From a virus (Duplodnaviria; Caudoviricetes), in IMG/VR virus record IMGVR_UViG_3300045285_000127, positions 1 to 34,693 of that record: a stretch of DNA of 34,693 nt, one strand, 5' to 3'. The notes beneath the pieces are model-generated. The model worked only from the letters and a program-made list of their open reading frames with translations, searched no databases and was not told where the DNA came from. Every line of letters starts with the position of its first letter. Position 1 is the stretch's first letter. Shown piece after piece: positions 7,640 to 29,010 of the stretch. A program made the translations under genes and the position numbers.

Positions 7640-7727
7640 GTATTTTAGATGTATTTTCGACGAATATAGTCGATTTTAGCTGCAAAAAGTTATAGAATAT
7701 TTTTACCTCACTAAAGGACTAGTGACT

Positions 7728-8183
7728 ATGTTTGGACCAAAAAAAGACGTTGGACGTCCCACTAAATTTACCCCTGAAAGGCGTGCAGCAATTGTTGACG
7801 CTATTTCTCATCGTATCCCTTATGAATATGCTGCGGAAGCTAATGGTATCTGTGAAGACACTTTGTATGAATGGTTAAAAATTGCTCGCGAGCATCGAAA
7901 GGAAGGTCTTGTAACTGAGTATACTTTGTTTTCCGAGGCTATAAAAAGAGCAGAAATGACAAGAATTAGAGAGCATTGCGATATGATTGCTGCAAAACCT
8001 GAGCGTTGGCAAGCTGATGCATGGATTCTAGAACGCAGATGGTATAAGCACTTTGGCCCTAATGCTCAGCTTAATGAGCTTAATGAAAAACTTTCAAGAC
8101 TAGTCGATGGAGAACCAAATGAAATCAAAAGAAATGAAGAAGATGGCAAAGAAGGCGGAGAAGGACATGCACAAGAAACATGA
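7728..8183 (+). CDS. terS: Terminase small subunit
   Basis: GRPTKFTPE, HTH (AAEANGICEDTLYEW), WQADAWILERR; upstream of TerL. ATG 7728 preferred over GTG 7722 for SD spacing. Confidence 0.75.
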   Translation: MFGPKKDVGRPTKFTPERRAAIVDAISHRIPYEYAAEANGICEDTLYEWLKIAREHRKEGLVTEYTLFSEAIKRAEMTRIREHCDMIAAKPERWQADAWILERRWYKHFGPNAQLNELNEKLSRLVDGEPNEIKRNEEDGKEGGEGHAQET

Positions 8184-8244
8184 GAAGCATCTGCATGAAA
8201 AGCCTAAGGCTATGAAGATGCCAAAGAAGGATTGTAAATACTAA
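8119..8244 (+). CDS. Small Lys/His-rich peptide (41 aa)
   Basis: Own translation MKSKEMKKMAKKAEKDMHKKHEKHLHEKPKAMKMPKKDCKY; SD GGAG. Confidence 0.5.
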   Translation: MKSKEMKKMAKKAEKDMHKKHEKHLHEKPKAMKMPKKDCKY

Positions 8245-8253
8245 GGAGCAACC

Positions 8254-8421
8254 ATGAGTGCTAAATATGTATCTGAAAAACCTGAACGTAAACTTAATGA
8301 TGAAAGCATTTTCGTTACGAGGGGGAAAACTGTTACGCAGGAAGCTTTTGCGAAATCTGGTGCGTGCCGTAATTTACCTGCTCAGAATAAACAAAATTAT
8401 GGAACGAAGGACTACAAATAA
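8254..8421 (+). CDS. Small hypothetical protein (55 aa)
   Basis: Own translation MSAKYVSEKPERKL...; SD TAAGGAG; abuts the next start. Confidence 0.6.
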   Translation: MSAKYVSEKPERKLNDESIFVTRGKTVTQEAFAKSGACRNLPAQNKQNYGTKDYK

Positions 8422-8422
8422 A

Positions 8423-8635
8423 ATGGCCAAGCTTACTGCTGATAAACGTAAGAAGATTCCAAAGTCTGAGTTTGGATTGCCTGGTGAAAGAAAATATCCG
8501 ATGGAAAATAAAGCCCATGCTGCCAACGCTAAAGCCCGTGCTACTCAGATGGTTGCTAAGGGTAAGCTATCAGCATCAAGCAAAGAAAAGATTGATGCAA
8601 AAGCTAATAAGATACTTGGTAAGTCAAAGAAATAG
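8423..8635 (+). CDS. Small basic phage protein (DUF6582-like)
   Basis: MAKLTADKRKKIPKSEFGLPGERKYPM...HA.NA.AR; start at 8423 rather than 8258. Confidence 0.7.
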   Translation: MAKLTADKRKKIPKSEFGLPGERKYPMENKAHAANAKARATQMVAKGKLSASSKEKIDAKANKILGKSKK

Positions 8636-8649
8636 GGAAATAAACTTAA

Positions 8650-9249
8650 GTGAAAGAAGATTTAAGTTTGCTGGAAAGACTTCATCATGGGTTATGTCAG
8701 GCTGTAGAACGAGATGGCGCAATTTGCTTTAGTAAAAGACATGGAACAGCTAGATATTGCGGTAAACATGCCAGCAGATATAGGAGACATAAGTCGTTTG
8801 ATTTGCCTTTTAAAAAGATTAAATATTGTAAATTTATAGATTGTAATAATGTTTATCGCACCAAAGGATATTGTAAATCTCATTATGAGATTCTTGTTAG
8901 CGCACCTAAGAATAAAAGAAAGAAATGCAGTATTGATGAGTGCATGAAAAAAAGAGGTAGTTGTTCAAAGTTTTGCCCTATGCATAACAGTAGAATATCA
9001 AGATATGGAACAATGGAAGGAAACGGAAAGAAAAGAGGACATGCCACACAATTTAAAGTCGGGAACATTTCTCGTAAAAAAGAACCAAGGAGATGCATTG
9101 CTGCCTCTTGTGATAAAGATTCTAAGACAAGCAAAATAACAAAAGGATTATGCTCTAAACACTATCAAAGATGGGCTACTCATGGTGATTATAATATGAG
9201 TTTATACAAGGAACGAGTACATGGCGGTAATTCAGAACAAATGGGTTGA
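8650..9249 (+). CDS. Cys/His repeat zinc-binding protein
   Basis: Four C-x4/5-C...C-x2-H units of the kind found N-terminal to HNH nucleases; no HNH core visible. Confidence 0.6.
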   Translation: MKEDLSLLERLHHGLCQAVERDGAICFSKRHGTARYCGKHASRYRRHKSFDLPFKKIKYCKFIDCNNVYRTKGYCKSHYEILVSAPKNKRKKCSIDECMKKRGSCSKFCPMHNSRISRYGTMEGNGKKRGHATQFKVGNISRKKEPRRCIAASCDKDSKTSKITKGLCSKHYQRWATHGDYNMSLYKERVHGGNSEQMG

Positions 9250-26840: not shown

Positions 26841-26864
26841 TAAATAATCAATTTGTAATTTATC

Positions 26865-26887
26865 AGGGGGTTAACTTCCCCCTTTTT
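26865..26887 (+). terminator. Rho-independent terminator
   Basis: AGGGGG-TTAACTT-CCCCCT followed by a T run. Confidence 0.7.
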
Positions 26888-26902
26888 AAAAGGAATCGAT
26901 AG

Positions 26903-27046
26903 ATGCAAGGTGCTTATGGTGGATTGATTATTATTCTTGTTTATGCAAGTGCAGGTGATGTACCACCAGGCCAAGGGTTTTTCTTGCAAACTGATAATAC
27001 CCCCTTGTTGTTGACTGATAATAGTAACTTGTTGCTTGCAAATTAA
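26903..27046 (+). CDS. Small tail accessory peptide (47 aa)
   Basis: Own translation [54 protein letters not shown]. Confidence 0.55.
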
Positions 27047-27056
27047 GGACAAAAAA

Positions 27057-28817
27057 ATGTCAAGAACATTAGAACAAATATACATTGATAACCCTATTAC
27101 CTCAAATACATCAACGGATTTAATGTATTTTGCTCAATCCCCTTATTCTGCGGGTAATGATGCTGGTATGACCTTTGCAAATTTTAGTTCACAATTTGGC
27201 GCACCTTATACGGCGGCAGCTCTTACTCGTACAAATGATACTAATGTTACTGTAACTCTGGGAGGAAACCCGGCAACCGCCTTATTACAAGCGACGTCCT
27301 TAACTATGGGTTGGACGGGAACACTGGCTGAAACAAGAGGAGGGACAGCGCAATCTACTTATACTCTAGGAGATACTTTATACAGTTCAGCTGCAAATAC
27401 TTTATCCAAATTAGCAGGCAATATCACCACTACAAAACAATATCTTTCACAAACAGGAACAGGTGCGGTTTCGGCTTCCCCTGCATGGTCAACCGTTGAT
27501 GGAGGAGATATTACAGGGGCTGCATTAACAAAAGTCGATGACACCAATGTCACAATGGCTTTAGGAGGAACTCCAACAACAGCTTTACTGCGCGCTGCTT
27601 CAATGACCCTTGGGTGGACAGGACAGCTTGCAGTCACGAGAGGTGGGACTGGATTAGGATCTCTTGCCCAAGGTGATTTAATCTATGGAAGTGCAGCTAA
27701 TACATTTTCAGCATTAACAAAAGACACTAATGCAACACGGTATTTATCAAATACTGGCACAAGTAATAATCCTGCTTGGGCACAAGTCAACCTTGCAAAT
27801 GGAGTAACTGGAAATCTTCCTGTAACAAATTTGAACTCAGGTACAAACGCATCATCAACTACCTATTGGCGAGGTGATACTACTTGGTCCACGATAACTG
27901 GAACTGATATCACTGGAGCTGCACTTACTAAAGTAGATGACACTAATGTAACCCTAACACTAGGTGGCACACCGGCAACCTCTCTTCTTCGTGCAGCTTC
28001 AATAACAGCCGGATGGACAGGCCAACTAGGATTAACTAGAGGGGGTACAGCTGCAAGTTTAACAGCATCAAACGGCGGCATTGTCTATAGTAATGCCAGT
28101 ACTCTTGCAATATTGGCAGGAACTGCCACCGCTGGCCAGATGCTTCAATCTGGTGCTAGCACCACCCCTTCCTGGTCAACATCCACATATCCTGCGACCA
28201 ATGCTGTTAATACATTGCTTTACGCATCATCCGCTAATGTCATGTCAGCTCTTGCCACTGCTAATAGCTCTGTATTAGTGACAAGTTCAGGAGGCGTACC
28301 TAGCTTGTCAACAGCTTTACCATCTGGGTTAACTGCTACTAACATGAACTTAACCACTCCCACCCTTGGCGTTGCTTCGGCCACTAGCATTAACTTTGGT
28401 GGCGGCGCTTTAAGTAGTTATGTCCCAAATACGTCTTGGACACCTACATTTACTTTTGGGACGCCTGGGAATCTTAGTGTTGTTTATAATACGCAAACAG
28501 GAAGATATGTAAGAATTGGGGATGTTGTTTATTATTCTTTCTCTTTGAATGTTACACCTACATTTTCTTCTTCATCAGGTAATGCAATTATTGGCGGACT
28601 CCCATTAACTGTAAGTTCTTCCGTAAACTGCTATGGAACATTTCAAGCAACTTTACTTTTATTTTCCGGATATCTTTCCGCTGCTCCTACTGGCGGTCAA
28701 ACAACAATGCTTATTATCAATTCGGCTAACGGGGCAGGCGGAGCTGCATTAACAACCACTGCTTTTACAACCGCCCAAGCTTTTGCCGTGGTGGGAACAG
28801 GATTTTATTATGTATAA
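27057..28817 (+). CDS. Long tail fibre with three internal repeats
   Basis: AALT..DTNVT..LGG.P.T.LL.A.S.T.GWTG.L..TRGGT three times; C-terminal WTPT...GRYVRIG.VV knob. ATG at 27057. Confidence 0.82.
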
Positions 28818-29001
28818 AAATCAGGGGATAAATTTGATTAAAGATGAAATACAGCAACGAATAGAGACGATTAATAATGAAATGGCACAAGTTAGGTCCA
28901 GTTATGCAAAGCTTGAAGGTCATTTGGCAGAAGCTCAGCACTGGCTCTCGCAATTAGAATTAAAAAAAGAAAATGAAATAATATTGGACGATATTAATTA
29001 A
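28810..29001 (+). CDS. Small coiled-coil protein (possible fibre chaperone)
   Basis: Heptad pattern; overlaps the fibre stop. Confidence 0.55.
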
Positions 29002-29010
29002 GGAATAATA

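Follow-up and report, generated by a model that had tools for sequence, protein, structure and literature searches.

The window analysed here is the whole of a 34,693-bp virus record (IMGVR_UViG_3300045285_000127; 38.7% GC, completeness estimate 99%). It contains a P22-like virion module with terminase, portal, scaffold, coat, head closure, ejection and tail genes. Leaders of these late genes carry hairpins that expose the motif ANGGA in their loop, described below as candidate operators of the host translational regulator CsrA. Homologues of the coat protein are found in at least 215 IMG/VR contigs, 80 of them listed, at 81-100% identity, and identity to named phages is only about 30%. Thirty-six of the listed coat-relative records were picked and 30 were fetched whole; the comparison set is the window plus these 30 relatives, or the window plus 84 coat loci where stated. 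The relatives share ancestry and are not independent samples, so that counts over them overstate the number of independent events. The carriers of the window DNA are soil metagenomes, with no RNA run among the sequencing runs listed. The hairpin sites and predicted promoter boxes are the following.

7693-7698, plus strand: -10-like box upstream of the terS hairpin.
7708-7725, plus strand: terS leader hairpin, hexaloop AAGGAC doubling as ribosome-binding site (terS start 7728).
12268-12285, plus strand: portal leader hairpin, loop position N = A21/C14/T4/G1.
15094-15099, plus strand: predicted -10 box serving the scaffold/coat operon; in 25/26 genomes it precedes the GGA by 14-18 nt.
15109-15187, plus strand: scaffold 5' leader with three hairpins, H1 (15109-15127), H2 (15135-15152) and H3 (15155-15168).
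15994-16005, plus strand: third coat-leader site, CAC[ATGGAA]GTG (loop in brackets), in the last scaffold codons, 84 nt before the coat start.
16013-16030, plus strand: distal coat-leader hairpin, in 60/84 loci.
16057-16076, plus strand: proximal coat-leader hairpin; the first bases of the GGAG ribosome-binding site are buried in its 3' arm.
17773-17786, plus strand: gp4-like leader site, weak in the window, forming a hairpin in a minority of relatives.
20647-20657, plus strand: leader hairpin of the gp7-like ejection protein gene, short in the window; relatives usually have TCAC[AAGGAAT]GTGA.
23591-23609, plus strand: tail-fibre leader hairpin, with the ribosome-binding site as its loop.
25605-25620, plus strand: A/U-stem hairpin before gene 25623, energetically weak, with two-sided pair changes in relatives.
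28997-29009, plus strand: site before gene 29011, weak and partially supported.

An earlier note on this DNA had listed twelve such stem-loop strings as a late-gene set; all twelve occur where it placed them. The portal hairpin, which it read as carrying one bulge, has instead an 8-nt loop closed by CCC/GGG, and the coat-leader site at 15994 had been missed. In the latter, the last scaffold codons read ACA-TGG-AAG in 57 of 60 distinct loci (in the head-gene background, ACA accounts for 32% of Thr and AAG for 41% of Lys codons), a codon choice that preserves the site ahead of the coat gene.

On folding, the sites differ in quality, energies being those of the isolated hairpin in kcal/mol and stem probabilities being means in a context of 80-100 nt. 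The values are 7708 (-4.7, 0.83), 12268 (-5.5, 0.87), 15109 (-8.9, 0.99), 16057 (-4.3, 0.89), 23591 (-4.4, 0.91), 16013 (-4.2, 0.36), 20647 (+1.6, 0.90), 17773 (-1.2, 0.03), 11948 (+0.2, 0.35), 25605 (+1.4, 0.25), 21263 (+2.6, 0.00) and 28997 (+2.4, 0.00).

Leaders were scored for a GGA-loop hairpin with a stem of at least 4 bp and a free energy of -1 or lower in the region -45..+6, and were compared with shuffles that hold every NNGGAN and the start codon fixed. Such hairpins are present in 8 of 30 late leaders of the window against 2.15 expected (P 0.00024), and in 1 of 30 early or other leaders against 1.14 (P 0.69); the late-versus-early difference that the earlier note had put forward is thus borne out. 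With the region extended to -90, the counts become 10/30 against 3.6 and 3/30 against 2.35, respectively. Among distinct leaders of the window and its 30 relatives, the hairpin is found for terS in 21/26 (1.4 expected), portal in 14/28 (3.3), coat proximal in 20/24 (2.7), gp7 in 20/29 (2.2) and fibre in 25/28 (0.9), and less often for gp4 (11/30, 2.2), gene 29011 (8/24, 1.3) and gene 25623 (5/28, 1.1). The early controls give 0/26 for Sak4, 1/26 for gene 459, 1/29 for the nuclease and 2/21 for the second Tad2. A looser test, with no energy cut-off and with 3-bp stems permitted for portal and gp7, yields terS 22/27, portal 25/30, scaffold 26/30, coat distal 17/29, coat proximal 25/29, gp7 23/29, fibre 22/29 and 25623 27/30; the corresponding controls are Tad2 4/30, gp20 11/27, 25278 10/30, Sak4 0/28 and gene 459 3/27.

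Eight of the twelve listed sites therefore hold across the 30 relatives: terS, portal, scaffold, the two coat sites, gp7, fibre and, more weakly, 25605. Those of gp4 and 28997 hold in part, and two sites drop out. The Tad2-like site at 11948 is rejected, its hairpin being found in 0/30 distinct leaders and a plain GGAG in 27/30, as is the gp20 site at 21263 (hairpin in 1/25 distinct leaders, stem probability 0.00).

The earlier note had also remarked that the stems differ while the loop is kept. Across relatives, ANGGA is conserved and several stems covary. In the scaffold leader (20 of the 30 leaders, chosen for equal length), 97% of cells are paired, two-sided changes occur in 12 of 16 pairs, none of 500 shuffles scores as high, and controls slid along the alignment reach 24-50%. 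Anchored paired counts lie above every one of 500 shuffles for coat proximal (289/315, maximum 251), terS (106/115, maximum 97), 25623 (114/135, maximum 106), coat distal (262/301), scaffold (222/301) and, narrowly, gp7 (118/195). The fibre and portal stems, in which covariation does not rise above shuffles, are supported by conservation above shuffles. Taken together, these patterns indicate selection on the stems. A model built on the scaffold leader recovers it, at E ≤1, in 9 of 10 divergent loci, 7 of them below 0.001, and has no match in the Legionella phage LME-1 or in two distant prophages (see below). In 7 of the 9 divergent scaffold loci, at 78-83% coat identity, ANGGA is retained on a different stem.

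The loop itself follows a published rule. CsrA and RsmE are described as recognising A(N)GGAX presented on a stem, with the core fixed and N and X free, a hexaloop being best and extra nucleotides lowering affinity (PMC4005645). The phage loops fit this rule, A, G, G and A being fixed and N and X variable, and the core is shown in a loop of 5-8 nt on a real stem for scaffold, coat, terS, gp7 and 25623. At coat proximal, 81 of 84 loci have ANGGA, and N is A17/C8/T20 among 45 distinct versions. X is never G in the loops of coat proximal (0/45), coat distal (0/43), scaffold (0/43), portal (0/40), terS (0/23) and fibre (0/27); in plain Shine-Dalgarno (SD) leaders, GGAG is found in 19-23 of 23-24. 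The columns of the ANGGA logo are partly fixed by the search pattern, which leaves the presence counts unaffected. The motif is furthermore kept at 18, 62, 68 and 84 nt from start codons, and the portal hairpin has a G-rich 3' arm that can act as ribosome-binding site, so that its loop is not required as SD. These positions indicate that the loop is not merely a ribosome-binding site, in agreement with the earlier remark that SD content alone does not explain the loops lying away from it.

These results bear on the possibility that no protein reads the loops, the hairpins serving to stabilise 5' ends or to present and tune the ribosome-binding site. Such a role would suit the scaffold, terS and fibre hairpins, which start a few bases from predicted transcript starts, and the four sites at which the loop is the SD. 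A stabilising hairpin requires no fixed loop, however, and the ANGGA kept at the four distances above shows the free and fixed positions typical of CsrA sites, which makes this explanation very unlikely. One relative, G029 (90% coat identity), lacks all 6 testable ANGGA loops and retains the coat stem. By hand calculation, the chance of an independent loss of all six is about 3 in 100,000 per genome, and a joint loss is what would be expected of a unit with one reader.

The sites are placed where a bound protein would affect initiation. Predicted -10 boxes lie 12-22 nt before the loop in 19 of 25 genomes for terS and 23 of 28 for fibre; a stricter test leaves 13/25 and 18/28, against 3/30, 1/30 and 0/21 in controls. 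The scaffold, terS and fibre hairpins would thus form the first bases of separate late transcripts. The loop coincides with the ribosome-binding site at terS, gp7, fibre and 25623, and this site lies in the 3' arm at coat and portal. In the scaffold leader, the strong loop of H1, at the predicted transcript 5' end and 68 nt from the start codon, is paired with a single-stranded GGA at the SD, within an ATGGAG ribosome-binding site 3' of H3. Scaffold and coat are thereby arranged in the way typical of targets bound by a CsrA dimer, with a strong upstream loop and a second site on the ribosome-binding site. With the loop at the ribosome-binding site in four leaders and the coat stem burying it, the effect of binding is quite probably repression rather than activation. 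The opposite sign, in which CsrA would for example shield the 5' end of the head-operon mRNA and favour virions during host replication, would draw on the position of scaffold H1, and Legionella CsrA is reported to activate some of its targets too (PMC5338858). The SD-overlapping loops and the SD-burying coat stem favour repression instead, and activation appears extremely unlikely.

An attachment site (att) gives a first indication of the host.

5212-5233, plus strand: Legionellales dif-like attachment site, within rep, the gene of the replication initiator (4543-5799).

This site matches the att of LME-1 at 21 of 22 positions (PMC5071653), the latter being reported as the Legionellales dif site used by XerL (PMC9765430). 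The dif pattern is present in 145 of 206 genomes of the order, as against 2 of 201 class-wide, one of these two being the order's centre genome. A coat search of the 206 genomes, 204 of which were scored, returned two distant prophages at about 25% coat identity, in genomes G293 (C1, ~1738500-1774200) and G291 (C27). Both carry P22-like virion modules distinct from LME-1, and both host genomes are DotA-positive. The G293 prophage shares an early module with the window (Sak4 84%, resolvase 61%, helix-turn-helix (HTH) genes 57-60%). It is flanked by a 17-bp direct repeat that splits rep, and this repeat has a single exact copy in the window, inside rep at 5212 (0/100 shuffles). The fold predicted for the gene 11505 product (11505-11765) corresponds to one chain in structure 9eg4 of the LME-1 capsid (TM 0.71, E 3.6e-4), and this product is likely a head decoration protein. 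From the att match, the Sak4 likeness and this fold, the host very likely belongs to the Legionellales. Contigs of four soil runs, which show presence and not absence, contain no integration junction at the att site. Matches to four metagenome-assembled genomes were discarded as a guide to the host, as they fall in four unrelated taxa and were treated as misbinned; the order of one of them, G039, yielded nothing further. Searches with the resolvase, portal, WGR, RelE and XhlA-like proteins gave no clear host.

Sampled genomes of the inferred host order carry the candidate reader: csrA matches number 4 in G293, 7 in G291 and 2 in G238, all three genomes tested being carriers. G293 and G291 also contain RsmY-like RNAs, below the Rfam cut-off, with 5 ANGGA motifs each, one of them in an A-U-closed AAGGAU loop resembling the phage terS and coat loops. 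The phages, in turn, yielded no csrA. PF02599 has no match in the window, where the earlier note had recognised none, nor in 36 phage relatives. An unfiltered profile search of 22,925 six-frame segments from the 31 genomes gave a best E of 0.97, profile-profile comparison of 134 small open reading frame families a best csrA probability of 3.8%, and the folds predicted for the conserved small proteins 17307 and 11505 are not CsrA-like. Rfam returns no Csr/Rsm match in the window. Both distant prophages bear GGA-loop hairpins on unrelated stems, in 5 of 18 late leaders (1.46 expected) in one and 8 of 19 (2.71 expected) in the other. The CsrA of the host is thus probably the protein that reads the loops.

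A reader encoded by the phage could be, for example, an unrecognised CsrA fold, a zinc ribbon similar to Com of Mu, or a scaffold protein regulating itself. Com itself and the P22 scaffold protein, which regulates its own synthesis, are precedents. The window offers one candidate, along with a possible DNA target for it.

9406-9600, plus strand: stand-alone NrdR-type zinc ribbon, in 31/31 genomes, candidate reader of the palindrome at 15057.
15057-15070, no strand assigned: single-copy, conserved palindrome ~24 bp upstream of the head-operon -10 box, candidate transcription-factor site.

Other phages do carry csrA (89 records; PMC7366521). The csrA searches above were negative at the level of Pfam, unfiltered profile and small families, however, the zinc ribbon finds its match in a domain that binds DNA, with a candidate DNA site at hand, and the G293 and G291 prophages retain the loops, a match to the zinc ribbon not being found in them. 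A phage-encoded reader is accordingly rated unlikely.

Eight or nine late leaders carry probable operators for the CsrA of a likely Legionellales host, which would act as a translation gate or timer on virion synthesis. L. pneumophila CsrA is reported to bind twin A(N)GGA loops, from which RsmX/Y/Z release it after starvation (PMC5338858). Bound CsrA would keep ribosomes from initiating on the messages for terminase, portal, scaffold, coat, ejection and tail proteins. The block would last until host Rsm RNAs, or late phage mRNA as it builds up, titrate CsrA. Virions would then be made in step with the switch of the host to the transmissive state, or begin once phage mRNA exceeds free CsrA. Whether this timing is tied to the post-exponential phase of the host is an even call. 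Entry into replication would likely be under separate control, through the integration that splits rep. The proposal of a Csr-gated regulon in the earlier note is supported in part, with a conserved and covarying late set, a likely host order with csrA in the genomes sampled and no csrA found in the phage; it loses two of its sites and its suggestion about CI (see below).

Several observations weigh against such a gate. Some sites are energetically marginal. Many stems are closed by A-U (41/45 coat proximal, 21/23 terS), unlike the C-G of RsmZ loops; C-G closes 22/27 fibre, 26/39 gp7, 13/40 portal and 9/43 coat distal loops. The scaffold, gp7 and fibre loops count 7 nt, and longer loops are reported to weaken affinity (PMC4005645). 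In a fixed register, covariation does not exceed shuffles for fibre (105, maximum 109) or portal (120, maximum 128), the former being too invariant and the latter mixing 6- and 8-nt loops. A close coat relative was not found in the 204 scored genomes of the order, and only 9 of the 31 phage genomes yielded a dif-like site (reversed control 0). A phage-encoded reader of very divergent sequence may exist. Finally, LME-1 has such hairpins in 1 of 18 late leaders, against 1.59 expected. As LME-1 shares the att and lacks enrichment, Legionella phages can do without the gate, which is therefore not universal; the same control shows that Legionella-type leaders do not by themselves produce the signal. 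With no enrichment and no coat or portal match, LME-1 was rejected as a direct model for the hairpins.

The hairpins could also work mainly as a sponge, abundant late mRNA titrating CsrA and driving the host to a motile, transmissive state with little self-repression. Three tandem loops and an SD ahead of the most abundant gene, that of the coat, resemble an Rsm RNA; episomal LME-1 is reported at more than 200 copies (PMC5071653), and loss of CsrA to give transmissive traits (PMC5338858). At four sites, however, the loop occupies the ribosome-binding site for a low-copy protein, and CsrA bound there must reduce translation; moreover, no free-standing multi-GGA RNA is found among the 171 plus- and 116 minus-strand ANGGA sites, the hairpins being mRNA leaders. 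A sponge as the main role is thus distinctly improbable. A wider form of the gate itself is more speculative and, on balance, doubtful: that Legionellales phages of a widespread family have tied virion production to the CsrA life-cycle switch, making particles only at the transmissive turn, the triple-loop coat leader titrating CsrA and so both sensing and driving the switch.

The proposed operators can be compared with known systems. With CsrA/RsmE operators and RsmY/Z loops (PMC4005645), they have in common the loop rule, the hairpin context, paired sites and overlap with the ribosome-binding site; twin CsrA loops are also reported for Legionella fleQ and lqsR (PMC5338858). They differ in being predicted, in forming a coordinated virion set, in their mostly A-U closing pairs and in some loops of 7-8 nt. 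The lysis gene cel of ColE7 is directly repressed by CsrA through a stem-loop and the SD (PMC2896534), and likewise illustrates a mobile element using host CsrA to restrain a late, costly product, although it is a single gene on a colicin plasmid compared with 8-9 leaders spanning head, ejection and tail functions in the phage. In Serratia ATCC 39006, loss of rsmA is reported to raise prophage expression and to free podophage particles (PMC4046660). The effect there included excision, and direct cis sites are not mapped in the part of that report drawn on here, whereas in the window cis sites are defined from sequence alone. LME-1 (record KT271770) resembles the window in its dif att, in rep C-terminus (49%) and HTH (47%) identities and in a decoration-like fold, and its integration splits rep (PMC12407071), as does that of the window's relative in G293; it departs from the window in having a T7-like virion module. 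Phage-encoded CsrA homologues, including PTXU04 gp28, are described (PMC7366521; PMC11879866) and also tie CsrA-family control to phage growth, whereas the window family, in which csrA was not found, contributes cis sites. A literature search, with most subscription papers and all supplements outside its reach, found no description of host-CsrA operators across phage virion genes. New here are a conserved regulon for which no phage reader was found, the assignment of a host order, and positive and negative control phages. In Legionella, the change from the replicative to the transmissive phase is described as governed mainly by CsrA (PMC5338858); only a single phage of Legionella has been isolated, and its activation trigger is reported as undefined, with no response to SOS inducers (PMC12407071). 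If the gate is real, late phage genes would be timed by a host translational regulator in a family of at least 215 viral contigs, which would suggest a reason why such phages resist induction and provides exact RNA sites.

The earlier note had further suggested that CsrA could stand in for a missing CI switch. No full-length CI was identified in the window, which holds two small genes of related type.

2253-2459, plus strand: small Cro/CI-like HTH gene, oriented away from the leftward early operon.
3731-3916: second small Cro/CI-like HTH gene.

As the rep-splitting integration, these two HTH genes and the conserved head-operon palindrome offer other switches, CsrA is not needed in that role and more plausibly provides an extra level of late-gene control than a replacement for CI. 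The inner core of the 15057 palindrome resembles NrdR boxes; the likeness is partial, host and E. coli nrdA boxes scoring 4.3-16.8 on the phage palindrome profile against a background 95th percentile of 8.1. Host NrdR is a doubtful reader of it, as the host boxes occur in pairs spaced by ~32 bp and the phage lacks a second box. Downstream of it, at 15090-15099 in the window, a C stands directly before the -10 box; among relatives, 15 of 25 promoters of scaffold and 9 of 17 of lysin have this C, compared with 0-2 for terS and fibre. A C at this position is a stationary-phase sigma signature, which would fit a post-exponential timing.

Other features accompany the leaders. Scaffold H2 keeps an ACCG-containing loop on a covarying stem, and is duplicated in some relatives. 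The -10-like match upstream of 25623 sits inside a small palindrome and may not be a promoter. Upstream of gp4, at 17719-17770, a weak Rfam abiF match below the cut-off (E 0.1) is confined to the window and one relative (G001); most relatives have a terminator-like hairpin in its place. Strong ANGGA hairpins outside late leaders are located at 2395-2412 (plus strand), inside the HTH gene, and at 4108-4125 (minus strand), upstream of rep. Between portal and scaffold, a ribbon-helix-helix antitoxin and RelE/ParE toxin pair occupies 14498-14963 on the minus strand, with a Legionella antarctica pair (52%) among its top plasmid matches. Two Tad2-like (anti-Thoeris) genes are present, at 11966-12211 in 30 of 31 genomes and at 32621-32998 in 22 of 31.

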